The position numbers were made by a program, and so were the translations under genes. The notes under the pieces were generated by a model. It was not told the DNA's origin, did not search any database, and saw only the letters and a list, made by a program, of their open reading frames with translations. From an uncultured Rubrivirga sp. (GTDB taxonomy: Bacteria > Actinomycetota > Actinomycetes > S36-B12): 64,000 nucleotides of DNA. Positions 4,025 to 50,150 of the stretch are shown piece after piece (the first letter of the stretch is position 1; each line of letters begins with the position of its first letter). Location: assembly GCA_964595675.1 (NCBI GenBank), contig CAZQRR010000002.1, forward strand, positions 8,246-72,245, read 5' to 3'.

Positions 4025-4036
4025 ATTGTTAACGAT
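4025..4036. promoter_or_regulatory. Operator-like AT-rich element ATTGTTAACGAT in the divergent SDR / amidohydrolase intergenic region
   Basis: An AT-rich patch (tacgATTGTTAACGATaaacaaagtttaga) in otherwise GC-rich DNA, 43 nt upstream of ATG 4079. It resembles the ATTGTC-GACAAT family seen elsewhere in the window. Confidence 0.4.
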
Positions 4037-4078
4037 AAACAAAGTTTAGACACCTGCCAGTCCAAGGGAAGGAGAGCC

Positions 4079-4996
4079 ATGACCGACGTCGACATTCCAC
4101 CCATCGCGGACGCTCACCACCACCTCTGGGATATGCGCGACTACCACGTCTGGCTCCATGCGAACCCCCGTGTGGTCAACTTCGTCGGCGACTACGAGTC
4201 CATCTGCCAGGACTACCTCGCAGCCGACTACCTTGCGGATACCGCGGGGCTTCCCGTCATCGCCTCCGTCCACGTCCAGGCGGAATTCGATCCGTCCAAC
4301 CCTGTCGGTGAGACCGCCTGGCTATCCCACCAGGCTCAGGTGACCGGTTTCCCGATGGGCATCGTCGGATTCGCCGACCTCTCCCACCCCGATGTCCAGT
4401 CCCTCCTGGAAGCCCACGCGGAATACGACCGATTCCGAGGTATCCGTCACATGCTCAACTGGGACACCGTCCCAGGCCGATCCTTCGCCGAGCACGGCGA
4501 CTACATGTCGAGTGCCGACTGGCGCCGCGGCTTCGGGCTGCTGGCGGGCATGGGGCTTCGTTTCGACATGCAGATCTGGCCCAACCAAATGCAGGAAGCT
4601 GCGGCACTCATCGCCGACTATCCGGATGCACGCGTCGCCTTGAACCACACTGGGTTCCCGATCGACCGCGACGAGGCATCCATGGAAATGTGGCGTGCGG
4701 GAATGCGCGCACTTGCGTCCAATCCGAACGTGTCGGTGAAGATTTCGGGACTCGGCATGCTCGATCACGAGTGGACGGCGGACTCGATCCGGCCGATCGT
4801 GCTCGAGGCGATCGATATCTTCGGACCCGATCGCGCGATGTTCGCCAGCAACTTCCCCGTCGACAGGCTCTACAGCGACTACCCCACGATCTTCCGCGCG
4901 TTCTCCGAGATCACCGCCGATTTCACCCCTGCCGAACGCACGCGGCTGTTCTCCGGAACCGCGATCGAGTTTTACGACCTGTCGCCCATCGGCTAG
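4079..4996 (+). CDS. Amidohydrolase-2 family metal hydrolase (sugar-lactonase-like, COG3618 type)
   Basis: Starts at ATG 4079 behind the RBS GGAAGGAG. N-terminal ADAHHHLWD metal motif and ...NHTGFP...ASNFPVD. The ORF-track start at 3992 is rejected as an N-terminal extension. Confidence 0.7.
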   Translation: MTDVDIPPIADAHHHLWDMRDYHVWLHANPRVVNFVGDYESICQDYLAADYLADTAGLPVIASVHVQAEFDPSNPVGETAWLSHQAQVTGFPMGIVGFADLSHPDVQSLLEAHAEYDRFRGIRHMLNWDTVPGRSFAEHGDYMSSADWRRGFGLLAGMGLRFDMQIWPNQMQEAAALIADYPDARVALNHTGFPIDRDEASMEMWRAGMRALASNPNVSVKISGLGMLDHEWTADSIRPIVLEAIDIFGPDRAMFASNFPVDRLYSDYPTIFRAFSEITADFTPAERTRLFSGTAIEFYDLSPIG

Positions 4997-5003
4997 GCAA
5001 CGC

Positions 5004-6614
5004 ATGCACTCCGACCCACCAGCACTCGCCGAAGGCCAGTGGCGCACGTGGCAGCAGGCTCAGTGGTCGGAGATCCCCGATCAGTCCAGTCACCAGGTGT
5101 GGGTCTACGCCGGACAACCCTCGTACGCGCCTGGTGACACCGCGACGTTCCACGTGAGCAGCAACGCGGAGGAAGTCCGCCTGTTCCTCGTTTGCGAAGG
5201 GGCACATGCGCGCACCATGGCCGAACTCGGTCCACAGCGGGGAAGCTGGCACGACATGCCTCGCGACGCTGTCCGAGAGGGTTGCCGGTGGCCGGTGACC
5301 TTCACCCTCGAGATCCCACACGAGTGGCCGAGCGGTGGGTACGTGGTGGTGGCCGAAGGCAGGACCGCCGATACGCGCGTGAGTCAGGACGGATTCTTCG
5401 TGCTGCGGGCACACCCGTCGCGACGTTCGAATCTCGCATTGATCGCCTCCACGTACACGTGGAATGCGTACAACGACTGGGGCGGCGCGAGTTCCTATAC
5501 GGCACTCCGCGGGTCCTTCCCCGGCAATTTCGAGCCGCGCCTGAGCCTGCAGCGCCCCTGGTCACGGGGCCAAATCCGTTGCCCGGTGGGTGCACCGCGG
5601 TTCGGTTCCATCCGCCGACCACCCATCGGGTGGGCGGTGCGCCACGAGTGGACCGAATGGGCGTACGCCAACGGGTATGCGCACTGGTCCGCCTCCTCGG
5701 GATGGGCCCGCTACGACGGATTGATGGCAGCGTGGCTCGAGCGCGAAGGGATCGCATGCGATCTGCTCAGCCAGTGGGATCTCGATCGCGATCCCTCGAT
5801 CCTCGATGGATATGACTGCGTCATCACGTGCGGTCACGACGAGTACTGGTCGGCCTCCGGTCGTGCCGTGCTCGCACACTTTCTCGAGGCCGGCGGCCAC
5901 CATGCGCGCTTCGGCGGGAACATCATGTGGCAGGTGCGTGCAGACGCACAGCAGCAGGTCACCGAGTGCTACAAGTTCCGCGCCGACGACGACCCGCACC
6001 GCCACGGTCCCATCGACATGCGCACCGGCGCTTTCGAGGGTCTCGCGATCAATCGACCACCCGTCACGGAATTCGGCGGTAACGCCACCCGCGGCATGTA
6101 CGCCGGATGGGGAGGAAGCGCGATCCGGGGCGTCGGCGGCTTCCTCGTCTACCGACCACGACATTGGGCGTTCGAGGGTCTCGACGCCTACTTCGGCGAC
6201 GTGATCGGTGCGGCAACCAACGTGGTGAGCTACGAGGCCGACGGCGTGGACTACACGATCCGTCACGGCCTGCCTTACCCCACCGGATCCGATGGAACCC
6301 CGGACACTCTCGAGATCCTCGCGCTCACCCCCACCACTTCGGAGGAGGAGAACCACGGGAATCCCGGTTCGCTCTTCGACCCACTCGACAACGATCTGGC
6401 CGGCATCGCGATCCTGCGCTACGGATCGGACTCCCCGGAGCACCGCGACCTATGTCGCTACGGTGCAGCGATGATCACATCGATGCCCGTGGGCGCGGGC
6501 GAAGTCTTCTGCGCTGGGAGCACCGAGTGGCCGTCGAGCCTGCACCGGGGCGACCAGGAGTGCGCGATCATCACCCGCAACGTCCTGCGACGCTTCACAG
6601 CGGATACCCGATGA
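5004..6614 (+). CDS. N,N-dimethylformamidase beta-subunit-like family protein (DUF6605-type), function unknown
   Basis: 536 aa. The segment LIASTYTWNAYNDWGGASSY and the overall layout recall the DMFase large-subunit-like family. The assignment is from memory of that family only. Confidence 0.45.
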   Translation: MHSDPPALAEGQWRTWQQAQWSEIPDQSSHQVWVYAGQPSYAPGDTATFHVSSNAEEVRLFLVCEGAHARTMAELGPQRGSWHDMPRDAVREGCRWPVTFTLEIPHEWPSGGYVVVAEGRTADTRVSQDGFFVLRAHPSRRSNLALIASTYTWNAYNDWGGASSYTALRGSFPGNFEPRLSLQRPWSRGQIRCPVGAPRFGSIRRPPIGWAVRHEWTEWAYANGYAHWSASSGWARYDGLMAAWLEREGIACDLLSQWDLDRDPSILDGYDCVITCGHDEYWSASGRAVLAHFLEAGGHHARFGGNIMWQVRADAQQQVTECYKFRADDDPHRHGPIDMRTGAFEGLAINRPPVTEFGGNATRGMYAGWGGSAIRGVGGFLVYRPRHWAFEGLDAYFGDVIGAATNVVSYEADGVDYTIRHGLPYPTGSDGTPDTLEILALTPTTSEEENHGNPGSLFDPLDNDLAGIAILRYGSDSPEHRDLCRYGAAMITSMPVGAGEVFCAGSTEWPSSLHRGDQECAIITRNVLRRFTADTR

Positions 6615-8561: not shown

Positions 8562-9209
8562 TTAGGTGATCCGAGTACGCGAGAACGCGTAATGGGCAGC
8601 GCAGGCTTCACGGATCCTCGAGTCGTCAGCTTCTGCGATGGCCTCAACCATGTTCAGGTGGAGCATGGAGGGCGGACGTTGACGAATGGACGTGTCAGCA
8701 ACCTCTACAGGCTGCAAGTACAACCTGGTCTGGTCCGTGAGGTTCGTCGAGATCTCGACGAGTCGGGAATTGCCGCTGGCCGTAGCGAGCAGCACATGGA
8801 ACTCCAAATCGGCCGCAAGACCCTCCGCAAAACCTCCCTCGTCCCAGCACCTCTCAATGCGCTGCTGACCCTCCCGCAGTTCCTGAATGATTGACTCATC
8901 ACGCAGGCCAGCCACCAGCCGGCCAGCAGCGAGGTCAATCACTTCGCGAACATGGTAGATCTCGAGCAGATCAGAGTTAGTCACGACTCGAACCGTGATG
9001 CCCCGTCTGGGATTCACCACCACCAGACCTTCGGATTCGAGGACGAAGGCAGCCTCCCTCACCGAGCCGGCACTGACGCCGTACTGACCTGCGATCGCCC
9101 CCACATCGACTTTTTGTCCGGGAGCCAACTCACGCCCGAGGATCTGGGCGCGAAGTTTCCGGGCGATCAACTCCCTCAACGACTGGTGCTGAAGCATGGC
9201 TTCGGTCAT
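8562..9209 (-). CDS. GntR-family transcriptional regulator (FadR/FCD subfamily)
   Basis: The N-terminal winged HTH (LRAQILGRELAPGQKVDVGAIAGQYGVSAGSVREAAFVLESEGLVV) is followed by a helical FCD-like domain. Confidence 0.8.
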   Translation of the reverse strand: MTEAMLQHQSLRELIARKLRAQILGRELAPGQKVDVGAIAGQYGVSAGSVREAAFVLESEGLVVVNPRRGITVRVVTNSDLLEIYHVREVIDLAAGRLVAGLRDESIIQELREGQQRIERCWDEGGFAEGLAADLEFHVLLATASGNSRLVEISTNLTDQTRLYLQPVEVADTSIRQRPPSMLHLNMVEAIAEADDSRIREACAAHYAFSRTRIT

Positions 9210-10472: not shown

Positions 10473-11420
10473 CTAGTCGTTTCGTGCCGTGTCATGGGGA
10501 AGGCGAGGTGCGTGACCCAAGGCGGTCACGTCGTAGTCGCGGATCGGTAAGGCCGGATCGACGATCGGGGAAGTGTTGTACCCGGGAAGGATCATGTGGC
10601 CGGCATCAATGTTGATCTCGATCCCCGTGACGTGCTGGGACTCGTCCGACGCGAACCACATGGCCACATCGGCGACGTCAGCCGCAGACAAGGCGTTTCT
10701 CCCCTTGAGTGCAGTCCAGTTATGACCGGCCCGGATGTATTCCTCCCGCGAGACGTCTTCGCGCCCAAAGGTAGTCCGGTAGACGGCCGGGTTATCCGAC
10801 ATGGGCGTGGCGACGAGACCAGGGGCGACTGCGTTCACGCGAATTCCGTGGTCACCGAGTTCCAGCGCGAAGACTCGCATCAGTCCGAGGGCCCCGTGTT
10901 TCGCCGCAACGTATGCAGCAATGTTCCGAAGGGGCTCAACCGAATTCGTGGACGTCGTGATGATGATGCTTCCCTCTCCTCGGCGGATAAGGAATGGGGC
11001 GGTCGCCTTGACCGTCTTCCAGATTCCGGTCAGGTTGACGTCGAGCACTTCCTGCCAAACGTGCTCCGGCATTTCCAGCGTCGGCCCCCAACTCACGATT
11101 CCCGCGTTGGCGCACACGATGTCGATGCGCCCAAACTCGTCCCATACCTGCTGGGCGAAAGTCGAGAGTCCTTCTTGGTCACGTACATCGACGACTCCCG
11201 TCAAGCATCGTCGCCCTGATGACCTGATAAGCGCGGCCGTGGCCTGCAGGTCCGCCTCGGTTGCCGTCTCGTAGGCGAGATTCGGTGACCGGGCCGGCAC
11301 ATCGCAGATCGCGATGTCAGCTCCCTCGGAAGCGAACTTGGCCGCGATTGCGCGGCCTTGTCCACGTGCTCCTCCTGTGATGAAGCCGACTCTTCCATCC
11401 AAGCGCCCCACAGCGATCAC
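10473..11420 (-). CDS. Mycofactocin-coupled-type SDR oxidoreductase with a C-terminal extension
   Basis: ITGGARGQGRAIAAKFASEGADIAICDV plus the insert LAYETATEADL, YVAAKHG and IDAGHM. About 40 extra residues follow the usual C-terminus (315 aa in total). Confidence 0.7.
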   Translation of the reverse strand: MIAVGRLDGRVGFITGGARGQGRAIAAKFASEGADIAICDVPARSPNLAYETATEADLQATAALIRSSGRRCLTGVVDVRDQEGLSTFAQQVWDEFGRIDIVCANAGIVSWGPTLEMPEHVWQEVLDVNLTGIWKTVKATAPFLIRRGEGSIIITTSTNSVEPLRNIAAYVAAKHGALGLMRVFALELGDHGIRVNAVAPGLVATPMSDNPAVYRTTFGREDVSREEYIRAGHNWTALKGRNALSAADVADVAMWFASDESQHVTGIEINIDAGHMILPGYNTSPIVDPALPIRDYDVTALGHAPRLPHDTARND

Positions 11421-13609
11421 CCTCTCCGTCGAATTAACGACGAACTGTGCGTGTCTCGAATGGCTTGCTCGATGTCCCGATCCGACAAAAGAACGAAGTC
11501 TTCAAGGACCCTTGACACCGGCGTTGGGACATCCTTTCCAGTCACGAGTCGAACCGGAGTTCGCAGGTCAGTGAAATGCCACTCGTTGATCACCTGGGAA
11601 ATCCGTGGACCGAGGGCGTGGGATGCAGTCGCGTCTTCCACGATTGCCACAGCCCCCGTACGACGCACAGACTCACTCACCAATTCCCAGTCGATCCCCA
11701 GCGGATCGATTGTGCGCAGATCGATCACCTCGGCGTCGATTCCCTCAGTTGCCAATTGCTCGGCAATCGCATAAACGCGATGCACCGGATGCGACCAAGC
11801 AAGGACCGTCAGGTCACGACCCGGACGCACCACACGCGCCGTGCCGAGCGGAATGCGCGCATCCAGGTCGGGAATCGCCCCCTCCATCGTCCACAGCCGA
11901 TGGTGCTCGATTATCAGGACCGGGTCGATTCCGTTGATCGCCGAATTGAACAACCCTACGTAGTCCGCAGGCGTCGAGGGGGCGATGATCCGCCACCCAG
12001 GGAAGAGTGCGAAAAGCGCGGCAGGATCGCAACTGTGCTGCGGCCCGAATCCACGACCTTGTGCCGTACGAGTGCGCACCACGAGCGGTACGTCAACTTC
12101 CCCACCGAACATGTGCCGGGTCTTGGGCACGTGATTGAGCAATTGGTCGGCGGCTTCGAGGGCGAAGTCGGGGAACATCAACTCCACTACAGGCCGCATC
12201 CCCATCACCGCGGCCCCGAGAGCTAATCCACTGAAACCGTTCTCCGAGATGGGTGAGCTGAACACGCGGTCGGGAAAATTGCGGCATACGTGTCGCGTGG
12301 TGCCGTAGGCACCGCCGCGCAGATGTCCCACCTCCTCACCGATAACAAACACCTCCGGATCCCTCTGCATGGCTCGGTCATGAACCAGCGAAATCGCCTG
12401 CTGGTACGTCACGACGTCACCGGATGTTTCGGGTTCCTCTCCGCGCGCGCGGCTAGTGTTCGCCGAACGCACGCCGCGCAATGCATCAGCGGGATCCGGC
12501 CACGCATCTTCGCGGATCCGAGGCCCCCCGTCGCCGGACTCCACGACAACATCGATCGCAGCTGCCAGATCCGTCTCAACACGTGCACGGATCACATCAA
12601 TGGCGGCTTCGCCGAGAAGTCCGGAAGCGTGAAGAGCACCTGGGAAGTGGGTGATCGGATCACGGCCGCGCCACTCACTCTCCTCTTCTTTCGTGCGGTA
12701 GCGGTAGTCGCTGCCGGGCAGGCGCCCTGATTGGTGCAAGTAACGGTAGGTCTTCGCCTCGATCAGGACTGGGCCCTGTCCTGCAGCGGCGTGGGCACGC
12801 GCCTGCGCAACTCCCGCGCGCACCGCGAGCGGGTCCATACCGTCCACGATGACACCCGGCATGTCGTGCCCAGCTGCGCGAATGGCGATATCGGGAAATC
12901 CCGCGGTCTCGGCCACCGTGGTGGCTACGGAATAGAGGTTGTTCTCGACGACGAAGATCACCGGCAGCGACATCACGCGAGCCATCGCCATCGACTCATG
13001 AAGGGCCCCGATCGATGAGGCGCCGTCCCCGAAGAAGGCAAGCGCTACTCCCCCCGAACCGCGCTGGGCGAAGGTGAAGGCCGCACCCGTGCTCACGGGG
13101 ATACCTCCCCCGACGATCGCACTCGTGGCGAGCACACCCGCCTCGATGGAGCCAAGGTGCATGGAACCACCACGACCGCCAGCGAATCCGTACCGCAGGC
13201 CGAGGATCTCAGCCATGGTCTTCAAGATCGCCTGCCGGACCCCATCTGGAGTCGGTGCCTCGCCTGCAGGATCGAAATCACCGGCATCGTGCGCGGCACT
13301 GGCCACCACCCGAGCGAGCACATGGTGGTGCGCCCGGTGCGTGGAGGCGATCTGGTCCTGCCGCTGCAGGGCGGCGATGGCACCCACGGCTACCGCCTCC
13401 TGTCCGATGCTCGAATGGAGCGGCCCGTGCACCAACGTCTCGTTGTCCACCAACCATTGCTCGAAGGACCGGATCAGCAGCAACTGGTAGAGCATCGACG
13501 CTGCGTCGGCGGAGGTGACCCCGTCGAACGACGCCGTGGCTTCGACGAGATTGGGGTAGGACCGCCAGGGGAGGTTCTGATGGGCGGACAGGTCGACTGG
13601 CGTGCTCAT
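11417..13609 (-). CDS. Fused E1 alpha-beta thiamine-diphosphate-dependent dehydrogenase (2-oxoacid / acetoin dehydrogenase E1-like)
   Basis: 730 aa. The N-terminal half carries the TPP motif GDGASSIGALHESMAMARVMSLPVIFVVENNLYS. The C-terminal half is E1-beta-like (FPDRVFSSPISENGFSGLALGAAVMGMRPVVELMF). Confidence 0.8.
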   Translation of the reverse strand: MSTPVDLSAHQNLPWRSYPNLVEATASFDGVTSADAASMLYQLLLIRSFEQWLVDNETLVHGPLHSSIGQEAVAVGAIAALQRQDQIASTHRAHHHVLARVVASAAHDAGDFDPAGEAPTPDGVRQAILKTMAEILGLRYGFAGGRGGSMHLGSIEAGVLATSAIVGGGIPVSTGAAFTFAQRGSGGVALAFFGDGASSIGALHESMAMARVMSLPVIFVVENNLYSVATTVAETAGFPDIAIRAAGHDMPGVIVDGMDPLAVRAGVAQARAHAAAGQGPVLIEAKTYRYLHQSGRLPGSDYRYRTKEEESEWRGRDPITHFPGALHASGLLGEAAIDVIRARVETDLAAAIDVVVESGDGGPRIREDAWPDPADALRGVRSANTSRARGEEPETSGDVVTYQQAISLVHDRAMQRDPEVFVIGEEVGHLRGGAYGTTRHVCRNFPDRVFSSPISENGFSGLALGAAVMGMRPVVELMFPDFALEAADQLLNHVPKTRHMFGGEVDVPLVVRTRTAQGRGFGPQHSCDPAALFALFPGWRIIAPSTPADYVGLFNSAINGIDPVLIIEHHRLWTMEGAIPDLDARIPLGTARVVRPGRDLTVLAWSHPVHRVYAIAEQLATEGIDAEVIDLRTIDPLGIDWELVSESVRRTGAVAIVEDATASHALGPRISQVINEWHFTDLRTPVRLVTGKDVPTPVSRVLEDFVLLSDRDIEQAIRDTHSSSLIRRRG

Positions 13610-14370: not shown

Positions 14371-15314
14371 CGATTCCCTGCTTCCTCGATTTGTGTCAGT
14401 GCCCGCATGACGGACAGCACGTCGCGGGCCTCGAAATCGGTGGGCTCCCCACTGCGCAGTCCCTTCAGGATCTGGGTGTTCTGGAACGTGAGATCGCGGA
14501 TGCTCGCACCCTCGACGATGAGTTCTCCCCCGGTTCCAAGGAGGGTGCCGGTGTCGAAGAGGTAATCACCCTGGGAGCCGCAGAAGCGCATTTGCCACGA
14601 CAGCGCCGATGCGTTGTAGGTCAGCGAATGACTGGCGATGCACCATGCATACTCACCCATGCCGAAGGACATGGTCATATCCATGGTCATGCCGAAATCC
14701 GGGTGGTCGATTCCTCTCAAGAGCGACGGGAATGCGATGTCTTGATTCCCGGTAACCCACAGGGTGGCATCGACGAGATGGCACGCGTGATGCCACAGTA
14801 GGTCGTCGACCCAAGTCCGCATTCCGGCGAAGCCCTCGTTGTTCCGCCGAGGGATGGCGAAGAAGCCCGTCACCTGCGAGATCACCTCGGACCCGGACGC
14901 GACGAGGTCGCGCATGTGGCGGATGCCGGCAAAGGAGCGCATTGTGTGGCAGGCAAATATCCGGCGGCCACGCTCCTCCGCGACCTGCACTATGTGCCGA
15001 GAATCGACTTCATTCACGGCGATCGGGATCTCCAGGATGACGTCCTTATCCGCTTCGAGTGCCCGGATCGCCTGGGCGGCATGGAATGAATTCGGTGAAC
15101 AAATGAGTGCCACATCCACCGCGGAATCGGACAGTGCGTCGTCAATGTCGACTCCAGCTCGCCGGATTCCCCACTTCTGAGCGAAAGCCAATGTGCGATC
15201 GGGGTCGCGTCCTACCGCCCACATCGGTTGGACACCGCCAAGTTCAGCGAATGTCGCAAGGTGCGCATCCGCGATCGCCCCCGGTCCGATGACCGCGATT
15301 CCCACACCAGTCAC
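14367..15314 (-). CDS. Gfo/Idh/MocA-family oxidoreductase
   Basis: N-terminal Rossmann segment GIAVIGPGAIADAHL and the EKD-like motif VILEIPIA. 315 aa. Confidence 0.7.
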   Translation of the reverse strand: MTGVGIAVIGPGAIADAHLATFAELGGVQPMWAVGRDPDRTLAFAQKWGIRRAGVDIDDALSDSAVDVALICSPNSFHAAQAIRALEADKDVILEIPIAVNEVDSRHIVQVAEERGRRIFACHTMRSFAGIRHMRDLVASGSEVISQVTGFFAIPRRNNEGFAGMRTWVDDLLWHHACHLVDATLWVTGNQDIAFPSLLRGIDHPDFGMTMDMTMSFGMGEYAWCIASHSLTYNASALSWQMRFCGSQGDYLFDTGTLLGTGGELIVEGASIRDLTFQNTQILKGLRSGEPTDFEARDVLSVMRALTQIEEAGNR

Positions 15315-15550
15315 GGCGCCTCAAAGACAGCGATGACTTGACCGACCGCAATCTGGTCATCAGGCTGCGCATCGAGGCGCACGACATGACCGGAGCACGG
15401 TGCAGGGATCTCAACGAGTGCCTTGTCCGCTTCGATCAAGGCCATCGGAGCGCCCTCCGGCACATGATCTCCTACGGACACCAGCCACTCGCTCAGGTAG
15501 AGTTCGGCGGGGTCGCCATTCATGGGCGGAACTGCGATGTCGATGCCCAT
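15311..15550 (-). CDS. Stand-alone lipoyl-attachment domain protein (79 aa)
   Basis: Runs from ATG 15550 to a stop at 15311. MGIDIAVPP...GAPMALIEADKALVEIPAPCSGHVV is the E2 lipoyl-domain pattern with the lysine in a DKA context. The upstream part of the 230-aa ORF overlaps the SDR gene in another frame and is rejected. Confidence 0.7.
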   Translation of the reverse strand: MGIDIAVPPMNGDPAELYLSEWLVSVGDHVPEGAPMALIEADKALVEIPAPCSGHVVRLDAQPDDQIAVGQVIAVFEAP

Positions 15551-15552
15551 GA

Positions 15553-16341
15553 TCACTGACCCGCTTCCGGCAGGCTCATCCCCGTCATCGCACCACCGTC
15601 GATGAAGAACTCCGATCCCGTCGAGTAGGTAGCGTCGAGGACCAGATAGCGGATGAGGCGTCCCGCCTCCGGCGGGTCGCCGATGCGTTGGACGGGCTGG
15701 GACTTGACCAATTCGGTCAACTCGCCGTGGAACGGTGCGGTCATCGGGGTCGCAAACGGACCGGGCACGACCACATGGACTCGGATCCCGTGCGGAGCGA
15801 GATCGATCGCAGCCGCCTTGGTGAGCCCGCGGATCGCCCACTTGCTCGCGACGTAGGCGGCCTGGTCCCCGTATCCGATGATGCCGCAGGTGGAGGAAAT
15901 GTTGATGATCACGCCACCGTGGCCCGCTGCGATCATCGCCGGGGCGACGGTGTTTATCCCCAGGAACGGACCGTTGAGATTGATGTCCTGGACTCGGCGC
16001 CAATTCTGGTAATCGTCCAACACCGTGCCAAAAGAGTGAACGCCCGCGTTGTTGATCAACACGTATGGCGCACCATGCTCAGCAACGACGTTGTCGACGA
16101 GTGCTCGCCACTGGACCTGATCCGTCACGTCCAGCCGCGCGAAACTCGCCCGGGACCCTAGATCACGAGCCAGGGTCCGCCCGTCGTCCTCGAGCACGTC
16201 GGCGACGACCACGTGCGCTCCCTCGTCGGCCAACGTTCGGACATACGCCTCACCCAGCCCCCGTGCCCCTCCCGTGACAATGGCTGTCTTGCCCTCAAGT
16301 GCCAACACGTCGATCCTCTCTGTCTCCCATCGCGCCCTCAT
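15553..16341 (-). CDS. Classical SDR oxidoreductase
   Basis: LEGKTAIVTGGARGLGEAY, NNAG, YVASKWA, PGPFATPM. Trimmed to ATG 16341 (262 aa). The exact start is uncertain. Confidence 0.75.
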   Translation of the reverse strand: MRARWETERIDVLALEGKTAIVTGGARGLGEAYVRTLADEGAHVVVADVLEDDGRTLARDLGSRASFARLDVTDQVQWRALVDNVVAEHGAPYVLINNAGVHSFGTVLDDYQNWRRVQDINLNGPFLGINTVAPAMIAAGHGGVIINISSTCGIIGYGDQAAYVASKWAIRGLTKAAAIDLAPHGIRVHVVVPGPFATPMTAPFHGELTELVKSQPVQRIGDPPEAGRLIRYLVLDATYSTGSEFFIDGGAMTGMSLPEAGQ

Positions 16342-16409: not shown

Positions 16410-17471
16410 TTATGATTTTCGATTGTCGACAATTATGCCTCCCTCCGAATCGATGGCTCGGATACATGCGCAACGATGATCCTGCCCAGTGACCGCCCTA
16501 AGTGGCGGCACCCTTTCAGAGCACTCCCCAACCGCTAGCCAGCACCGGGTTCTGAAGCGACAGCCACTCGGTGGATTCGCCGGGCTCGGCACGTCACCGC
16601 TAAGGACTATCCGCTCGCGGACTCCCCGGTCGCCAGGCGACTTGACCGGTGCAGCCGAAAGCAGGGCTTGGGAATACGGATGCAAGGGCTGCCTGAAGAT
16701 CTGGCTCGACCGCCCGTCCTCTACGACGCTGCCCAGGTACATGACGGCTAACTTCTCGGAGATCTCTTCAACGACGGAAAGATCATGGGAAATGAAGATC
16801 ATCGACAGGTCGTGCTCGTGCTGCAGATCACGAAGCAGGTTGATTATCTGCGCTTGTACCGACACGTCTAGAGCCGAGACAGGCTCATCAAGGATGAGTA
16901 CCTGAGGCCTAGATGCGAGTGCGCGAGCTATGCACACCCTTTGCCGCTGACCTCCAGAGAATTCGCGCGGGTAGCGATTCGCATCGGAGGCCCGCAGACC
17001 GACCTTCTCTAGCAACACCCCGACCTCCCCGTCCACAGACTTCCGCGAGGTTGTAAGTCGATGCACTCGCAGGGGTTCGCCGACCTGCTCCCCGACGGTC
17101 CGGCGCGGGGTCAGTGCAGCGTACGGATCCTGGAAGACCAGTTGAATTCGAGGGCGTACGGCTCTAAACCGCCTCAGCGACATGCTCAACACGTCCATTC
17201 CATCGAGCAGAATCTCACCTGACGATGGCTCCTCGAGGCGGACCAGGCAACGAGCGAGAGTCGACTTGCCGCATCCGGACTCACCCACAATTCCGAGAGT
17301 GGAGCCCCTAGCCAGATCGAAGGAGACGTCGTCCAGGGCACGAATGAGTCCGCGAGCCGACTTTCCGTCCCCTCCGTACCTGCTCGCAAAGACTTTCGAA
17401 ATACCGCGAACCGAAAGAGCGATATCCGACTCGCTGGCTTGATGGTCCGGTGCTCGAAGATCGTCAGACAT
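16410..17471 (-). CDS. ABC transporter ATP-binding protein (Opp/Dpp F-type)
   Basis: Walker A GESGCGKST, signature FSGGQRQR, Walker B LILDEPVSALD and the C-terminal oligopeptide-type extension. Confidence 0.85.
   Translation of the reverse strand: MSDDLRAPDHQASESDIALSVRGISKVFASRYGGDGKSARGLIRALDDVSFDLARGSTLGIVGESGCGKSTLARCLVRLEEPSSGEILLDGMDVLSMSLRRFRAVRPRIQLVFQDPYAALTPRRTVGEQVGEPLRVHRLTTSRKSVDGEVGVLLEKVGLRASDANRYPREFSGGQRQRVCIARALASRPQVLILDEPVSALDVSVQAQIINLLRDLQHEHDLSMIFISHDLSVVEEISEKLAVMYLGSVVEDGRSSQIFRQPLHPYSQALLSAAPVKSPGDRGVRERIVLSGDVPSPANPPSGCRFRTRCWLAVGECSERVPPLRAVTGQDHRCACIRAIDSEGGIIVDNRKS
16422..16433. promoter_or_regulatory. Perfect palindrome ATTGTCGACAAT (operator-like) between the ABC ATPase and enzyme genes
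   Basis: A 12-bp perfect palindrome lying in the last codons of the ATPase ORF, about 80 nt upstream of the SDR start. It is identical to the core of the 23575-23590 palindrome. Confidence 0.5.
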
Positions 17472-18516
17472 GCGGTTGTTCCACCTCAGCTGAGTACATA
17501 CAAGCTGCCCAGTGGTTAGAGCCGACCTGCATCAATGTGGGGGTTATTTCGCAGCAGTCGATGTGAGCAATTGAGCACCGCTCGGCGAATGCACATCCAC
17601 GGGAAACCTCCTGGGCGGAAATCGACCGCCCTGGTAGCTGGAAGAGGCGACCTTCTTCCGTCTTTGAACGTCCACCGGGAATTGACCGCATAAGCCCGAG
17701 CGTGTACGGGTGTCGCGGATTTGCGAATACGTCCGCAACCGGCCCCCTTTCAACCACAGCTCCTGCGTACATAACGACCACGGAGTCCGCCAACTCCGCG
17801 ACAACCCCCAAGTCATGCGTGATCAAGACAACGCTCATACGTCTCTCGTCACGAAGACGCTGAATCAGTCTCAGGATCTGTGCCTGTACCGTCACATCTA
17901 GCGCAGTGGTTGGTTCGTCGGCGATCAACAGAACCGGATTGGCGGCAATAGCCATAGCAATGGCTACTCTTTGGCACATTCCCCCTGAAAACTGATGGGG
18001 ATAGTGACGAACCCGAAGTGCCGCATCGGGAATTCCGACGAGATCCAACAATTCAACACTGCGCCGGCGCGCTTCGCGCCAAGAAAGCCCGTCCCGAACC
18101 ACCAGAGTCTCACTGATCTGATACCCCGTTGTGAAGACTGGATCAAGAGAAGCTTGAGCGTCCTGTTGGATATAGCCCACTAGGTTCGCGGCCGACGATG
18201 CTCGGCCAGCGGAAGTTCCAGCGTTCGGTTCGACGATCTCAATGCATTCGGCACTCACAGTGGTGACGCTCGGATCGAGTAGTCCTAGGATTGCAGAGAA
18301 CACCGAAGTCTTACCCGATCCGGATTCGCCTACAACGGCGAGTATCTCCCCCGGCCCCACGTCCAAATCGATTCCTCGCACCGCAGAGACACTCCCGCTC
18401 TCTGTTTCGAAGGACACATGCAGCCCGCGCACCCGCAGGACGGAGTCAGCAGAGTCAAATGCAGCCTCAGGACTCATGTTGATCACCATTTGGGTCCCCT
18501 GCTGCGTTTCGGGCAT
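17464..18516 (-). CDS. ABC transporter ATP-binding protein (Opp/Dpp D-type)
   Basis: Walker [29 protein letters not shown]. The start is uncertain (18477-18516) and the ORF overlaps the permease 3' end. Confidence 0.85.
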
Positions 18517-19531
18517 CAGTTTCGCTCGACTTACCGCGCGATCGCTTTCGTCCTAGAGCCCGGCGGCGGCGCGTCACGAGCTCCGTTCGGCCTTTCGGAT
18601 CCGTTACCAACCTCGCCCAATTCGCAGTGAGGTTCAGGGAAAGTGCCGTAAGAAAAATCATCAATCCTGGAATAGCCACGATCCACCAGGCCGTGGCAAT
18701 GTAGGAACGGCCCTCCCCCAACATCGAGCCCCACGATGGTGTGGGCGGCTGGATTCCGAAGCCGAGAAAACTGAGAGCAGCCTCACCGATGATGATGGTT
18801 GCGCACTCGAGAGTCGCCAAGACTAACAGCGGCGCCGTCATACTCGGGAAAATGTGGCGCGTCATGATCTGCAGATTTGTTGCGCCAACGACTCTTGCCG
18901 CATCAACGTGGGTGGCACTCTTTTGTGACAAGACCAGGCTTCGCGAAACCCTTGCGTAGATCATCCACTTGACGATCGCCAATACGAGGATGACGTTCCA
19001 GAAACCCGGTCCTAGAACAAACAAAACCAGGAGAGCGATTAGCAGGAAGGGAAGGCTCATTTGCAGGTCGACAAATCGCATAACGATGTCGTCAAACCTG
19101 CCGCCGAAATAGCCGGCTAGTACACCCACAACTATGCCGAAGATCCCCGACAGGAGAACGGTGAGTGCCGCCACGAGAATCGATACGCGAGCGCCGTAGA
19201 TTATCCGAGAGAGAAGATCTCGCCCGAGAGGATCGGTTCCGAGCACGTGCGGAGGCGCCCCAGGATCAACACCGGGAGTCAAGGGTGGTTTGTTTCGCAT
19301 CAGGAGATCTTGAGCATTCGGGTCGTATGGGGCGACGACCTCAGCGGCAACGGCGAAGACAACCAACAGAGCCAGAAAACTCAAGGAGATAATGACAAAC
19401 GGCTCCCTGCTGAGGAGACGCATGGTATTCGCACGTTCCGCAGCGCCAAGCCTTGGCTTAGGAGGCGGCGGCGTGCCATGTGCCTCCCGATCCGTCACTG
19501 GACTACTCCGTGGAGCGCCTTCATGTCTCAC
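18467..19531 (-). CDS. ABC transporter permease (Opp/Dpp C-type)
   Basis: Multiple TM segments with an EAA-like loop. GTG 19531 forms a GTGA overlap with the upstream permease stop. ATG 19423 is an alternative start. The 405-aa ORF-track start is rejected. Confidence 0.75.
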   Translation of the reverse strand: MRHEGAPRSSPVTDREAHGTPPPPKPRLGAAERANTMRLLSREPFVIISLSFLALLVVFAVAAEVVAPYDPNAQDLLMRNKPPLTPGVDPGAPPHVLGTDPLGRDLLSRIIYGARVSILVAALTVLLSGIFGIVVGVLAGYFGGRFDDIVMRFVDLQMSLPFLLIALLVLFVLGPGFWNVILVLAIVKWMIYARVSRSLVLSQKSATHVDAARVVGATNLQIMTRHIFPSMTAPLLVLATLECATIIIGEAALSFLGFGIQPPTPSWGSMLGEGRSYIATAWWIVAIPGLMIFLTALSLNLTANWARLVTDPKGRTELVTRRRRALGRKRSRGKSSETDARNAAGDPNGDQHES

Positions 19532-20454
19532 AGCCTGACTTTCGGGTTGAGGGCGATGTAAGCCAGATCGATAAGTAAATTGACAAGAACGATCACGATC
19601 ACGATCACGAGAACCGATGCTTCGACTAACGGCAGATCGCGACGCTCGAGCGCCTGCATCATCAAGGATCCGATTCCAGGCCATCCGAAGACCACTTCGA
19701 TGACAATCGCGCCCGTTAACAACTGTGCGATGTCATCCCCCGTGACGGTGATGATCGGCAAGGCAGCGTTCTTGAGCGCGTGCACGCCGATGATGCGCTT
19801 TTGTGGAATTCCCCTTGCGGCGAGCGCACGAACGTAGGGCTTTGACAATTCCTCGAGAATGCTACTTCTGGTCATCTGCGCCGTGCGTCCCATTGGCTTA
19901 TACGCAAGCGCCAATGCTGGCAGAATCACGTGCTCCCAGCTGCCGAAGCCCGATGTGGGAAGAAGGTCGAGTTGCACAGCAACGACCAGAATCAAAACTA
20001 ATGCGATCCAAAATTCCACAATCGAGACTGCGCTCAGACTGATTGCACTGACTGCCCGGTCGACGAGACTTCCTGGCCGAGATGCGGCGATCAGCCCCAG
20101 AACCAGTCCCAATGGGACTGCGAAGAGCACCGCCACGCCGGCCAAAAGGAAAGTTGCTGGAAGGCGTTCCAACACTAGGCTCAACGCCGGAACGTCCTGC
20201 CAGAAAGACATTCCCAGGTTCCCTTGGGCCACATTCCACATGTACGAACCGAACTGCTCAGGGATCGGACTGTCGAGATTCAGTTGCGATCTGACTTCGG
20301 CCACCCGTTCCTCGGATGCCTCGATTCCGAGCACGATACGAACCGGATCTCCGACCAAACGGCCAATCACGAAGACGATTGCCACGGCGGCGAAGATAAC
20401 TCCCAATGAATGAAGGGTGCGCCTAAGGAGATACCTCCACATCTGACTAGACAC
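19528..20454 (-). CDS. ABC transporter permease (Opp/Dpp B-type)
   Basis: 308 aa with six hydrophobic segments, ending in the typical ...DLAYIALNPKVRL. The start is GTG 20454 or ATG 20442. Confidence 0.8.
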   Translation of the reverse strand: MSSQMWRYLLRRTLHSLGVIFAAVAIVFVIGRLVGDPVRIVLGIEASEERVAEVRSQLNLDSPIPEQFGSYMWNVAQGNLGMSFWQDVPALSLVLERLPATFLLAGVAVLFAVPLGLVLGLIAASRPGSLVDRAVSAISLSAVSIVEFWIALVLILVVAVQLDLLPTSGFGSWEHVILPALALAYKPMGRTAQMTRSSILEELSKPYVRALAARGIPQKRIIGVHALKNAALPIITVTGDDIAQLLTGAIVIEVVFGWPGIGSLMMQALERRDLPLVEASVLVIVIVIVLVNLLIDLAYIALNPKVRL

Positions 20455-27158: not shown

Positions 27159-27164
27159 ACCGAC

Positions 27165-33775: not shown

Positions 33776-33852
33776 TAGGGGCCACGCTCCTCACCTGTAC
33801 GCCTATATAAAGGTGTCGAATCGGCTGCAATGATCCCAAGGCGAGAATTCGT

Positions 33853-41955: not shown

Positions 41956-41986
41956 GTTGACACGCATTCGGAGTCAACTGTCAACA
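41956..41986. promoter_or_regulatory. Operator-like cluster: GTTGACA ... GTCAAC-TGTCAACA
   Basis: GTTGACA (41956-62) and TGTCAAC (41979-85) are inverted. GTCAAC (41973-78) abuts the latter. A further TTGTCAAGG lies at 41995-42003. The cluster is 30-60 nt upstream of the SBP start at 41926. Confidence 0.5.
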
Positions 41987-42038
41987 ATCTGCCTTGTCAA
42001 GGAGTTTGCCGAGATTCCCCATGGGCGGACCTGGTAGG

Positions 42039-43051: not shown

Positions 43052-43083
43052 CTAGGATTGCAGATTGTCAACAGAATCCTAGT
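43052..43083. promoter_or_regulatory. Nested palindrome CTAGGATT-N16-AATCCTAG enclosing ATTGTCAACAG
   Basis: The 8-bp arms lie at 43052-43059 and 43076-43083. The TGTCAAC-family core is at 43064-43074. It sits in the 98-bp divergent gap between the dehydrogenase (-) and the aldolase (+). Confidence 0.5.
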
Positions 43084-45977: not shown

Positions 45978-46125
45978 GACTCCTCCGATGCTCTCAGTGA
46001 GGTGATCTGAGAATGTCCAGAACAGGAGTGCAACCCTGAGTACTCACACCTATTCGAACCGGTAACGGCTAGGACTATATAAATTCCGTTAGCACTCAGA
46101 GTCCATTCTGACGAATCCGCCCCGG

Positions 46126-46632
46126 ATGGAGGCCCCGATGTCCGTCGTGACGATTCCCGATGCTCAGTTGACCCGCGAGGAAATCATTCAGCGAAACCTC
46201 GAAGTCGTGGAGGCCCACTTCCACAACGAAACTCCTGACAAGGTCCACGAGGCCGTGGCTCTCTACACTGACGACATCGTGTGGGAGGGGCCTGCCCGAG
46301 GCCTCGTGTTCCTCAATGCCGAGGATGCGCTTGCTGGATACCACGACATCTTCTCGTCTCTCCGGATCCTGAGCCACACGCATCTCCGACGCTTCGCCAC
46401 GGAGGATGTCGTATTCGACGACTGCATCTACGAGTGCGAGTACGTCGAGGATCACATGGAGAACTTCCCATTCCCCGCTGGCACGAAGGTTCGTATGCGG
46501 CTTGCCCACATCTTCGAGATGCGGGATGGCAAGATCGCCAAGGAAATCGCCTACGAGATCATCCGGCGCGTGGGCGACCCCAATGATCGGGACTTCATCC
46601 CCGAGGGTTCTCCCGTCACGGTTTTCGAATAG
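46126..46632 (+). CDS. SnoaL-like / NTF2-fold protein
   Basis: 168 aa with NLEVVEAHFHNE...YTDDIVWE...IFEMRDGKIAKE, the pattern typical of SnoaL-type cyclase/isomerase folds. The start may be ATG 46138. Confidence 0.55.
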   Translation: MEAPMSVVTIPDAQLTREEIIQRNLEVVEAHFHNETPDKVHEAVALYTDDIVWEGPARGLVFLNAEDALAGYHDIFSSLRILSHTHLRRFATEDVVFDDCIYECEYVEDHMENFPFPAGTKVRMRLAHIFEMRDGKIAKEIAYEIIRRVGDPNDRDFIPEGSPVTVFE

Positions 46633-46650
46633 AGAGTTGAGAAGGATCCA

Positions 46651-47463
46651 ATGAAATTGGTCGCCTACCTTCGTGAGGGCCTCCCTGCAGTGGGGGTGGT
46701 GGAGTTCGGAACTGTCTTTCCCATCGCGCCCCGAGATGAATTCTTCGAAGACGCCGACTATTGGCTCGCGCAACCCCGGAACACCGATTCCGGAACTTCC
46801 GTGCAGGACGTCATCCAGATCCCAGCGGTGCGCAGTGACTGCAACGTCGTATGCGTTGGCCTGAACTACCGAGATCATGCCGACGAGTCGGGCTTGGATG
46901 TCCCCACGAGTCCTTCGATCTTCGCTCGTTGGGTTTCTACGCTGAGTGTCGACGGAAGTCCGGTAGCCGTTCCTCCGTGTGAGGAGGGCTTGGACTGGGA
47001 AGTAGAACTCGCAGTGATCATCGGCAAGCAGCTCGACCGACATTCGGGGCCGGCTCAGCCCAGCGACATCCTCGGCTACTCCGTGTTCAATGACATAAGT
47101 GCGCGCGGCCGTCAGTTTGACACCTCCCAGTGGTCCCTCGGCAAGAACGTGGACTCCTCCGGACCACTCGGTCCTGTCCTCGTGACTGCCGACGAGTTCA
47201 TTGGGTGGCCTCTGTTGAATCTCCAACTGCGCGTCAACGGACAGGTCAGGCAGACCGGAAACACCGGGGAGATGATCCATTCCATCCCTGACTTGATCGC
47301 CTACGTGACGCAGACCCTCACCCTCCGACCTGGGGACCTGATTGCAACGGGGACGCCATCCGGAGTGGGATTCAAGTGCGATCCGCCGATTCTGCTGCAC
47401 CCAGGTGATGTCGTGGAGGCAGAAATCGAATCGATCGGCGTCTTGCGTACACCGATCATCTAG
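46651..47463 (+). CDS. Fumarylacetoacetate hydrolase (FAH)-family protein
   Basis: 270 aa with VCVGLNYRDHADESG...WEVELAVIIG...DISAR...PGDLIATGTPSGVG. Confidence 0.8.
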   Translation: MKLVAYLREGLPAVGVVEFGTVFPIAPRDEFFEDADYWLAQPRNTDSGTSVQDVIQIPAVRSDCNVVCVGLNYRDHADESGLDVPTSPSIFARWVSTLSVDGSPVAVPPCEEGLDWEVELAVIIGKQLDRHSGPAQPSDILGYSVFNDISARGRQFDTSQWSLGKNVDSSGPLGPVLVTADEFIGWPLLNLQLRVNGQVRQTGNTGEMIHSIPDLIAYVTQTLTLRPGDLIATGTPSGVGFKCDPPILLHPGDVVEAEIESIGVLRTPII

Positions 47464-49181: not shown

Positions 49182-49232
49182 TTCGTGTCGCTCCTCCCCG
49201 CCACCGGTGGGGTTTCCTCAGTGCCACCGGCA

Positions 49233-50105
49233 CTATCCCATGCGCCTGCGGATCTCGTCGAGGTTGTAGATCGAGGACTCGCGAGCCCTCTCCTCCCAGG
49301 CGAAGATGCACACCGTCATGACGCCGTCGAACTTCAGTCGTGTCAAGGTCCCGAAGAAGGTGTCCCAGTCGACCTCACCCTGGCCGATGTCCAGATGCTG
49401 GTGGATCCGAGGAGGCGTCACACCGACCGGAACTCCGCCTCCTGCACCGATGTTGACGATGTAGCGCAAGCCAGAAGACCCTCGGAAGTCGAAACTGTCG
49501 GCAACGTGCACGTGCGTCAGCAGGTCTCCTGCGTACTCCATGATCCCAGCGATATCCCCGCCCATATAGAAGGTGTGCGGGGCGCAATAACTGAACGACA
49601 CAAGGGGGTGGTTGATCCCACGGATCATGTCCACGGCGGCGAACCCGTCCTCGATGAAGTCGTTTGGGTGAGGTTCGATAACGAGCCGAATCCCCTCGCG
49701 TTCGAAGTCGGGTAGCAGGTCCTCCATGGAGCGCCAGAACAGCGCCTCGCACTCGGCCGGAGTGGCCGGACCGCCGTTGAACTCCGAGAGCATCTCCGGC
49801 ACCCCGAGCTCAGCAGCGATCTGGATCGATCGACGCCAATACCGAACGGCCGCCTGGCGGGCATCCTCTCCCGGACCGGCCCACCGGAAGAGAGGCAGGA
49901 GCGTGGCCACCTCAACTTCAGCGGCCGCGAGGGCCGACTTGAATGCTCGAATATCCGAGGAATTCGCCCGCGGGTGCTTGTAGAAGGGGATGAAATCCTC
50001 ACGCGGGGAGAGTTCTATCGCCTGGTATCCGAGGTCCGCTACCAAGCCGGGCAATTCGGTCAAGGGCGTGGAGCGGAACATGTACGGATCCAGAGCGATC
50101 TTCAT
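49233..50105 (-). CDS. Sugar phosphate isomerase/epimerase-family TIM-barrel protein
   Basis: ATG 50105 (MKIALDPYMF...) behind GGGAGG. Xylose-isomerase-like TIM pattern (...IEPHPND...HVHVAD). Confidence 0.7.
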   Translation of the reverse strand: MKIALDPYMFRSTPLTELPGLVADLGYQAIELSPREDFIPFYKHPRANSSDIRAFKSALAAAEVEVATLLPLFRWAGPGEDARQAAVRYWRRSIQIAAELGVPEMLSEFNGGPATPAECEALFWRSMEDLLPDFEREGIRLVIEPHPNDFIEDGFAAVDMIRGINHPLVSFSYCAPHTFYMGGDIAGIMEYAGDLLTHVHVADSFDFRGSSGLRYIVNIGAGGGVPVGVTPPRIHQHLDIGQGEVDWDTFFGTLTRLKFDGVMTVCIFAWEERARESSIYNLDEIRRRMG

Positions 50106-50138
50106 CGGACCTCCCGAGTTATCGCACATCTATGAAAA

Positions 50139-50150
50139 TTGCTGACAATC
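50139..50150. promoter_or_regulatory. Near-palindrome ATTGCTGACAAT (operator-like) in a divergent gap
   Basis: It has one mismatch from ATTGTCGACAAT. It lies in the 110-bp gap between the TIM-barrel (-) and dehydrogenase (+) genes. CTATAG boxes are at 50173-78 and 50196-201. Confidence 0.4.

Follow-up and report, generated by a model that had tools for sequence, protein, structure and literature searches.

A conserved GT-N2-AC palindrome as candidate operator of three FadR-subfamily GntR regulators in a catabolic island of an uncultured actinobacterium

Ten sites of a single motif in the catabolic island

A stretch of 64,000 nucleotides (nt) of contig CAZQRR010000002.1 (assembly GCA_964595675.1, an uncultured member of the Actinomycetota), referred to in the following as the window, carries a catabolic gene island in which ten copies of a short palindromic motif and the genes of three paralogous GntR-type regulators (GntR1, GntR2 and GntR3) are found. 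Judged from sequence comparison, the ten sites are probably operators of FadR-subfamily (FCD-type) GntR factors, for which the three island paralogues are the candidates. A preliminary description of this DNA had regarded the motif copies as shared operators of the GntR regulators at catabolic operons, and the comparative evidence given below supports this assignment. The joint control by one or several of the regulators that was proposed at the same time is supported as far as the operator reading is concerned, but three overlapping sub-regulons are likelier than one common regulon, and to call the regulon island-wide was an overstatement, since the segments 1-3900 and 52036-58510 of the window are devoid of sites. 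It is well supported that the sites are real, conserved and of the known FadR/FCD operator kind, and that they belong to an ordinary bacterial regulon, which is not conceptually new.

The gene map of the window comprises 58 genes, derived from the longest open reading frames (ORFs) and Pfam matches, with start codons refined by ribosome-binding site (RBS) signals and the positions of the Pfam matches. With these starts, the ten sites fall in nine promoter regions, at distances of 9-112 nt from start codons, and cover up to ~14 transcription units (Table 1). Among these are both Opp-type ABC importers, the transketolase/P450 operon, the HpcH-IolD-SDR-MFS operon, the IolE-like gene, four modules of HpcH aldolase and 2-hydroxyacid dehydrogenase (2HADH), the E1/lipoyl operon and the amidohydrolase-DMFA2-lactonase operon. 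Only one site cluster out of ten, the 16422 site (site F) at the end of an ABC ATPase gene, is not intergenic, in agreement with the earlier count of all but one. The sites were also said to form AT-rich islands in GC-rich DNA; the sites themselves are indeed AT-rich, but the intergenic DNA as a whole exceeds the window in AT content by a small margin only (58.6% versus ~62% GC). Ten of eleven sequence strings quoted earlier were located at the coordinates given for them, while ATTGCTGACAAT is located at 50138-50149 instead of 50139-50150. An isolated GTTGACA at 41956, listed with the sites before, shows no conservation among orthologous promoters and probably does not belong to the system.

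Aligned in register, the ten sites are described by one 21-column model, n-A-t-T-G-T-Y-R-A-C-A-r-T-y-n-r-C-A-a, in which T4, G5, A9, C10 and T13 are invariant in 10 out of 10 sites. Columns 2-13 represent a 12-bp palindrome of the class GT-N2-AC (ATTGTYRACAAT, spelled A-T-T-G-T-Y-R-A-C-A-A/G-T), and in columns 16-20 the right arm recurs in weaker form as an ACAnT box, 7 nt further downstream. Strong versions of the two units together give a 17-bp dyad TTGTYRAC-N-GTYRACAA, as in site C and in the version of site H found in the related locus L022 (TTGTTGACGGTCAACAA). The two words ATTGTC-GACAAT and TGTCAAC-T-GTTGACA were both noted in the preliminary description because they belong to one element consisting of the palindrome and the ACAnT box. 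Sites A and B share a 14-mer. From 39 unique sites outside the window, the consensus ATTGTYRACArTynRCAnT was obtained, with approx zero information in the flanking columns; T4, G5, A9 and C10 are present in 39/39 and T13 in 36/39 of these sites.

Table 1. Regulator genes and motif sites in the window. Positions are those of the 64,000-nt stretch.
Feature	Position	Strand	Domains or sequence	Context
GntR1	8562-9209	-	GntR winged helix-turn-helix and FCD; recognition helix VSAGSVREA	penultimate gene of the site F operon
GntR2	28207-28944	+	GntR winged helix-turn-helix and FCD; recognition helix VSPIPLREA	last gene of the site E operon
GntR3	33868-34602	-	GntR winged helix-turn-helix and FCD; recognition helix VSRGPVREA	last gene of the site B operon, site C directly after
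Site H	4024-4044	+	GATTGTTAACGATAAACAAAG; core 4025-4036	divergent region, SDR (start 3912, minus) / Amidohydro_2-DMFA2-SGL operon (start 4079)
Site F	16414-16434	-	AATTGTCGACAATCGAAAATC; core 16422-16433	overlaps last 8 codons of ABC ATPase gene (16410-17471); 106 nt upstream of SDR start 16308; operon SDR-lipoyl-GFO-amidohydrolase-E1-SDR-glyoxalase-ADC-GntR1-APH
Site G	22434-22454	+	GAGTGTTAACAGTCTTCCCTG	80 nt upstream of SBP_bac_5 (start 22354, minus), first gene of ABC importer operon 1
Site A	22552-22572	-	minus-strand reading CCGTGTTGACAGTTGACAACG	24 nt upstream of IolE-like TIM-barrel gene (start 22596)
Site E	23569-23596	+	perfect 16-mer ATATTGTCGACAATAT (23575-23590); core 23577-23588	9-17 nt before transketolase-N start 23605; heads operon TK_N-TK_C-P450-glyoxalase-GFO-GntR2
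Site C	33850-33870	-	TGTCAAC-T-GTTGACA; palindrome 33853-33867	abuts GntR3 stop codon; 75 nt upstream of HpcH-IolD-SDR-MFS operon
Site B	41969-41989	-	minus-strand reading GATTGTTGACAGTTGACTCCG	43 nt upstream of SBP_bac_5 start 41926; heads operon ABC importer 2-HpcH-2HADH-GntR3
Site D	43056-43076	-	plus-strand core ATTGTCAACAGA (43064-43075)	divergent 2HADH (start 43022, minus) / HpcH-2HADH (start 43121)
Site I	50137-50157	+	AATTGCTGACAATCTACACTC; core 50138-50149	divergent TIM-barrel (start 50105, minus) / 2HADH-TIM barrel (start 50216)
Site J	61523-61543	+	GATTGCAAACAGTCAGCACTA	divergent TIM barrel-enolase-SDR (start 61503, minus) / HpcH (start 61572)

Enrichment of the motif in intergenic DNA

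The core word TGTYRACA occurs nine times in the window, and seven of these copies are found in the ~3.5 kb of promoter and intergenic DNA, compared to 0.15 expected from dinucleotide shuffles. None of 2000 shuffles reached seven intergenic copies. The coding mask used for these counts includes a 79-aa lipoyl-domain ORF (15311-15553, minus strand). Since the pattern TGTYRACA had been picked after the sites were seen, an unbiased ranking was added, in which all intergenic k-mers, collapsed with their reverse complements, were compared to a first-order Markov expectation. The top-ranking words were TGTCAA (k = 6), GTTGACA (k = 7) and GTCGACAA/TGTCAACA (k = 8), with a best P value of 2.6e-7 (2550 7-mers).

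With the 21-column matrix, the ten sites scored 18-27 bits (14-23.5 bits when each was left out of its own matrix), and the best non-site position in the 64 kb scored 10.5 bits; no site had been overlooked in the preliminary description. A matrix built from the 39 non-window sites only placed the same ten sites in the top ten ranks (14.7-25.8 bits), followed by a position with 9.4 bits. At a threshold of 12 bits or more, 16 positions were observed with this matrix, compared to 1.2 in shuffled windows. Site I was scored at 27.0 bits with the former and 25.0 bits with the latter matrix, and site G at 18.6 bits with the latter. Neither matrix revealed further matches in the 60 kb of coding DNA, and both scans left the segments 1-3900 and 52036-58510 free of the motif. 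The first of these segments contains the GT2 and GMC genes. The second one encodes an OYE-type flavin reductase, an HTH_8 protein, an FMO/Baeyer-Villiger-like monooxygenase, a PhyH dioxygenase and a LacI regulator, and is presumably under separate regulation.

Conservation in related loci

Related loci (L003-L029) were fetched via the regulator genes; two further entries (L001 and L002) represent the window sequence itself and could not be used for footprinting. In the metagenome-assembled genomes (MAGs) carrying regulators 51-91% identical to those of the window, orthologous promoters keep the sites while the flanks diverge, and the orthologues of each regulator keep a site at the corresponding promoter. 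GntR3 orthologues with 79-91% identity come from MAG contigs that bear the label Actinomycetota or Candidatus Nanopelagicales, and one with 53% identity from a Gemmatimonas-labelled MAG. Five loci (L005, L007-L009 and L011) are titled 'Bifidobacterium breve' or 'Rubricoccaceae'; their genes are 79-90% identical to those of the Actinomycetota MAG loci, and the records are probably mislabelled or mis-binned.

Site C is kept in L003-L012, L027 and L028. The site reads TGTCAACAGTTGACAA in the window, TGTCGACTGTTGACAAT in L003-L007, TGTAGACTGTTGACAAT in L008/L009, TGCAGACTGTTGACAAT in L010/L011 and TGTCAACAGTTGACAAT in L012, where it is located upstream of the HpcH orthologue; from group to group, the intergenic DNA around it is unalignable. 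In the footprints of sites C and B, the half lacking TTGACA (TGTCRAC, TGYAGAC) and the central ACAGT are conserved. The promoter of the second SBP gene, which harbors site B (alignment A2), shows an invariant TTGACA-N8-TTG...ACAGTT.ACT, followed by RBS and ATG, in seven loci. Site D is kept as TGTYRACAATYRACAAT, with CTAG on both flanks, in L003, L004 and L007 and also in L027. A counterpart of site A (TGYTRACAGTYTRCAT) is positioned ~26 nt before the ATG of the IolE-like orthologue in L003, L006-L008, L010 and L011, and site F is kept as TGTCGACAAT or TGTTGACAAT in L003, L006 and L022, where it is followed by TTGACA-17-nAnnnT.

Orthologues of GntR2 (66-84% identity) are found in other genomic contexts with the same operon, TK_N-TK_C-P450-glyoxalase-GFO-GntR2, and in two of these loci (L013 and L018) TTGTYRACAATATC is kept between the -10 box and the RBS. 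In loci with GntR1 orthologues (51-85% identity), site H is kept as a 17-bp palindrome, TTGTTGACGGTCAACAA in L022 and TTGTTGATCGTCAACAA in L023, while L024 has CTGTTGATCGTCAACAA; the GntR1 homologue with 51% identity has TGTCAACAATCAGCAG in its own divergent promoter. Counterparts of site J were found in L012 (GATTGCAAACAGTTTGCAGAT) and L027 (GATTGCCAACAGTCGGCAGAT), both in divergent regions between an IolE-like gene (XI) and a 2HADH gene. Three more distant GntR3-type loci (L027-L029) encode GntR3-like regulators of 56-69% identity in DNA with a GC content of 0.55-0.68 and have a different gene order. Of the 15 matrix matches listed there (at least 11 bits), 14 are intergenic and next to the same enzyme families, namely at APH|XI, HpcH|enolase, XI|2HADH, HpcH|2HADH, 2HADH|SBP, GntR|HpcH and MFS|SDR junctions.

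Several gene blocks of the window are syntenic in related loci: the divergent pair HpcH and 2HADH, the series SBP-perm-perm-ABC-ABC-HpcH-2HADH-GntR3, the HpcH-IolD-SDR-MFS operon, and XI divergent to SDR-GFO-amidohydrolase-E1. The latter two units, XI and the SDR_c operon, are direct divergent neighbours in L003, L006-L008, L010 and L011. ABC importer 1 (16410-22354) and the transketolase/P450/GntR2 operon (23605-28944) are placed between or next to these two units in the window. In other loci (L013-L016), the GntR2 operon adjoins transposase genes, which suggests a modular gain by insertion. A near-identity search of positions 20000-44000 against plasmids gave no match.

Occurrence of the 17-mer beside other regulator genes

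Because the choice of L003-L029 by their regulator genes builds in a co-occurrence of motif and regulator, a scan was carried out that started from the motif. Metagenome contigs were searched for the exact 17-mer TGTCAACAGTTGACAAT, which yielded at least 120 stretches with a total of 671 kb. Among the matches listed, a GntR-like ORF starts -8 to +93 nt downstream of the 17-mer in 18 of 120 stretches. All of these belong to the 44 stretches with a GC content of at least 0.52, where FCD-GntR genes adjoin the 17-mer in 18 cases, compared to none in the 76 stretches below this value; elsewhere in the 671 kb only three other GntR-like matches were listed, and the regulators beside the exact 17-mer listed all carry a GntR3-like helix, SRGP(V/I/L)REA. 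At least ten distinct proteins are encoded beside the 17-mer, with 29-39% identity to the window regulators. Ten non-identical ones were compared to Pfam and all of them match both GntR and FCD, one with an FCD score of 23.9 bits, slightly under the cut-off of 24.3. One of the stretches (L058) is an orthologue of the junction between the enolase gene and the HpcH-IolD operon.

The matches in AT-rich DNA are best read as chance occurrences. Two contigs with a GC content of 0.32-0.33 contain two exact 17-mers each, 43-86 nt apart (L030 1011-1070 and L043 622-724). No GntR homologue was detected near the paired 17-mers on these two contigs, and the pairs could be due to chance in AT-rich DNA or to an unrelated repeat.

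The three regulators and known FadR-type systems

The window encodes three FadR-subfamily GntR regulators, as previously described: all of them match PF00392 (54.4, 53.6 and 60.5 bits, cut-off 27) and PF07729 (FCD; 69.3, 63.4 and 74.9 bits, cut-off 24.3). The recognition helices follow clade signatures when orthologues are included, VSRGPVREA for GntR3, VS(P/M)IP(L/I/M)REA for GntR2 and VS(A/T/S/P)GSVREA for GntR1. No NCBIfam equivalog was assigned to any of the three, the best being phnR_burk with 92-118 bits (cut-off 271.5). Among solved structures, unnamed FCD regulators, PdhR and McbR come closest, and the best match of GntR3 in the PDB is 7xp0 (E = 2e-18). Residues D134, H138, H184 and H206 are invariant across the three window regulators. 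We take this D...H...H...H pattern to be consistent with the metal site of FCD domains.

FadR-subfamily operators are A/T-rich palindromes with TKGT/ACMA boxes. In the majority of groups GT and AC are 3 nt apart, and in the GntR, HpxS, HypR, MdcY, PrpR and UxuR groups 2 nt; weaker extra half-site boxes 7-12 nt from the site centre were described for 13 FadR-type groups (Suvorova, Korostelev and Gelfand 2015, PMC4494728). The consensus ATTGTYRACArT shows the A/T-rich palindrome, the TKGT/ACMA boxes and a GT-AC spacing within 2-3 nt. The FadR-subfamily dyad class named for the motif before is supported by these boxes, the 2-nt spacing and the auxiliary box. Like those of the 2-nt groups (PMC4494728), the window sites are located in divergent intergenic regions and at the operons of the regulators themselves; unlike in these groups, three paralogues with one core occur together in one island. 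No description of this regulon, its gene content or its host lineage was found in the literature consulted.

The most similar operator is that of PrpR of P. aeruginosa, a GntR-family repressor of the 2-methylcitrate cycle (PMC9765439) assigned to the FadR subfamily (PMC4494728). Its predicted consensus operator is the 12-nt palindrome ATTGTCGACAAT upstream of prpR, and binding of PrpR to that upstream region was seen in electrophoretic mobility shift assays (PMC9765439). The cores of sites E and F are letter-identical to ATTGTCGACAAT, and both sites head an operon encoding a regulator. In contrast to PrpR, most window sites have a degenerate YR centre and an extra box, and the host is an actinobacterial MAG. 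A PrpR/methylcitrate regulon was considered and rejected, as citrate-synthase, PEP-mutase/methylisocitrate-lyase, aconitase and MmgE/PrpD families are absent among the 58 genes according to Pfam. The window thus is not a PrpR regulon and shares only the operator class.

The FadR-subfamily members DgoR, FadR, PdhR and LldR of E. coli are described as repressors acting via promoter-overlapping inverted repeats and induced by organic acids (PMC7674646). Their operators differ from the window sites by a 3-nt GT-AC spacing (PMC4494728), and sequence identity is low. DgoR has a metal-containing effector pocket, and the invariant D...H...H...H pattern of the window regulators would fit such a site.

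In various bacteria, operons for inositol catabolism are under the local control of IolR repressors of the DeoR, RpiR or GntR type. The window is similar in that local repressors would act on operons with iolD and iolE-like genes, and different in that its regulators are FCD-type, while no DeoR or RpiR domains were found in the Pfam scans. The motif is presumably also unlike the IolR motifs. The IolD protein of the window (31101-32960) is assigned at equivalog level (760 bits, NCBIfam cut-off 715), whereas the IolE-like protein (22596-23489) remains below the corresponding cut-off (184 versus 290 bits). Several GFO/IDH/MocA dehydrogenases are encoded in the island, and the four HpcH-aldolase/2HADH modules are found at 35682/34692, 43121/43909, 42039, 61572 and 50216. 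KduI/IolB, PfkB and class-II aldolase families, or matches suggestive of iolB, iolC or iolJ, were not found among the 58 genes with Pfam. IolD and an IolE-like protein without IolB, IolC and IolJ may point to a non-canonical cyclitol route.

Promoter context and proposed mode of action

For the HpcH-IolD operon, a promoter TTGACA-17-GATCAT with an upstream TG was predicted at 33858-33830 (minus strand), the -35 box of which is the right half of site C. A second predicted promoter, TTGACG-17-TATTGT (23536-23564), has site E 11 nt downstream of its -10 box. Apart from sites C and E, the -35 and -10 boxes were assigned by eye. Site B appears to fill the spacer after the conserved TTGACA, the left arm of site H may also serve as a -35 box (TTGAC/TTGAT), with a conserved TAnnnT 17 nt further on, and site D seems to lie between two TAGGAT hexamers facing outward. 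The remaining sites are 20-45 nt from start codons. Altogether, the site positions would fit repression by promoter occlusion. No terminator-like hairpins were found in the site regions scanned.

In three intergenic regions, AT-only words were observed (CTATATAA and GGACTATA/TATAGTCC; 33804-33810, 46072-46082 and 50174-50181). Of these, the word ahead of HpcH_a (TTTATATAGG, ~30 nt from the ATG) is retained in L003-L005 and not in L006/L007; these words may be -10-like elements.

If the sites are operators of FCD-type regulators, each TTGT/ACAA arm would be read by one winged-helix domain of a regulator dimer. Without inducer, the dimer would block RNA polymerase at sites lying over or next to core promoter elements or short leaders, and a small carboxylated pathway intermediate bound in the FCD pocket would release it. 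All three regulator genes stand last or next to last in operons with a site at their head (site F for GntR1, E for GntR2 and B for GntR3), which suggests negative autoregulation of each regulator. Physical binding, repression as opposed to activation, the identity of the effector and the pairing of paralogues with sites are points that we infer.

Weighing of alternative explanations

A number of observations speak against a common operator of the three regulators or limit the evidence for it. The paralogues share only 34-36% identity and differ in their recognition helices, and one shared specificity is therefore not assured. The co-occurrence of motif and regulator in L003-L029 is subject to ascertainment bias, the loci having been selected by the regulator, and the sole test that started from the motif rests on one site variant. 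Of the nine regions, only two gave a canonical promoter with the promoter tool. At site F, the apparent -35 box is downstream of the site, an arrangement that would rather suggest activation or an ancestral divergent promoter; the site could act in a different way or be left over from the ancestral divergent XI promoter. Finally, GTTGACA contains the sigma-70 -35 hexamer, and promoters could supply part of the word enrichment.

The last point might be extended to the view that all words are -35 hexamers (TTGACA) with chance neighbours and not sites of a dedicated regulator. The right half of site C coincides with a predicted -35 box, a conserved CTTGACA is present upstream of site B, and TTGACA boxes are found at the SDR_c and TK_N promoters of relatives. 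However, six of the ten sites (E, F, G, H, I and J) are without TTGACA (TGTCGACA, TGTTAACA, TGCTGACA, TGCAAACA), and yet E, F, H and J are conserved. Moreover, the motif is located over the -35 box in site C, in the spacer in B, after the -10 box in E and upstream of the -35 box in F, its partner half (TGTCRAC, TGYAGAC) and central ACAGT are conserved as well, and the 17-mer adjoins FCD-GntR genes in unrelated metagenomes. This explanation was rejected as very improbable. Slightly less improbable, though still doubtful in the extreme, are operators of another factor, either the LacI-family protein (57464-58510), the HTH_8 protein (54076-54861) or a regulator encoded outside the window. LacI-type operators are TGT...ACA palindromes, often with a central CG as in sites E and F, and the presence of a GntR gene in L003-L029 was a consequence of locus choice. 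Most sites, however, have TG, CA, TA or AA in the centre, and the extended dyad, with its 17 bp, is odd in length, whereas LacI operators are even in length with a central CG. No other regulator family recurs among the identified genes of L003-L029, which include a single TetR (L022), a single LacI (L025) and a second GntR (L029); the motif-first scan led to adjacent FCD-GntR genes, and the segment with the LacI and HTH_8 genes contains no site. A LacI-family operator was discarded on these grounds. Least credible of all are mobile or structural repeat copies, similar to repetitive extragenic palindromes (REP) or miniature inverted-repeat transposable elements (MITE), and transcription terminators. 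Site C is a perfect 15-bp palindrome right after a stop codon, and the 14-mer common to A and B might be taken for a repeat, but the repeat search lists no family at the sites (the listed families all being coding-coding matches), no hairpin with a T-tract is present at any site, a 7-bp stem with a 1-nt loop is unable to fold, and the sites occupy orthologous positions and are not scattered. Repeats and terminators were therefore dismissed.

Of far greater weight is the division of the sites among the regulators. Within the operator reading, the three paralogues may govern largely separate sub-regulons with limited cross-talk, each recognizing its own flavour of the common core, and the chance that this holds comes close to even. 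GntR2 would then bind TTGTYRACAATATC, GntR1 TTGTTGA-N3-TCAACAA and ATTGTYRACAAT, and GntR3 GTYRAC-W-GTTGACAAT. The clade-specific recognition helices (VSRGPVRE, VSPIPLRE and VSxGSVRE) argue for such a division, as does the finding that GntR2 orthologues in loci without the other two regulators keep TTGTYRACAATATC in their own leader, that the H-type palindrome is kept in GntR1-clade loci, and that the listed regulators by the exact C-type 17-mer have GntR3-like helices. On the other hand, the sub-motifs (ACAGT versus ACAAT centre, second box) overlap heavily and are inseparable by sequence, and loci with GntR3 only carry both ACAGT and ACAAT types, although another paralogue may lie past the contig ends. 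A more far-reaching version, for which the odds are low, is that the shared operator code joins the three FCD paralogues in a cross-regulating circuit which delimits an undescribed route for cyclitols or sugar acids. Such a circuit would act by overlapping site recognition or by higher-order binding through the auxiliary box with its 7-nt offset. In the route, IolD and the IolE-like dehydratase would feed the four HpcH-aldolase/2HADH modules, and the split transketolase, the P450 and the E1/lipoyl unit would take part as well, replacing the canonical IolB/IolC/IolJ steps. If true, this circuit and route would be set in abundant freshwater Actinomycetota.

Further genes of the island

The 79-aa ORF with a lipoyl/biotinyl domain between the SDR and GFO genes belongs to one operon with a fused E1 alpha+beta 2-oxoacid dehydrogenase (11417-13609, 730 aa), and no E2 catalytic domain was seen. 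This arrangement of lipoyl ORF and E1 is kept in L022, L025 and L026. The DMFA2_C-domain protein (5004-6614, 536 aa), encoded in a motif-bearing operon, has no NCBIfam match, and a 394-aa ORF (46096-47280, minus strand) has neither a Pfam nor an NCBIfam match; whether the latter belongs to the site I unit is uncertain. At the left edge of the window, GT2 (207-1625), GMC (1612-3054) and SDR (3082-3912) genes are located. In L022, where the orthologue is 85% identical, GT2 is followed by TetR, mftA, mftB and mftC (17642-20648), genes of the mycofactocin cluster, and therefore the left edge of the window probably abuts such a cluster. The GT2 protein is a possible MftF, and the SDR and GMC oxidoreductases encoded next to it may depend on mycofactocin.

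Significance of the motif

While the understanding of GntR-family regulation is unchanged by these findings, TGTCAACAGTTGACAAT appears to serve the autoregulation of many unrelated FCD-GntR genes in high-GC bacteria, which aids the annotation of regulons. For the uncultured freshwater Actinomycetota, the motif provides a sequence-based grouping of operons in a ~58-kb catabolic island, where most of the covered units encode enzymes without an assigned pathway. It makes testable the pathway, the inducer, via three small FCD proteins, and the cross-talk between the paralogous regulators.

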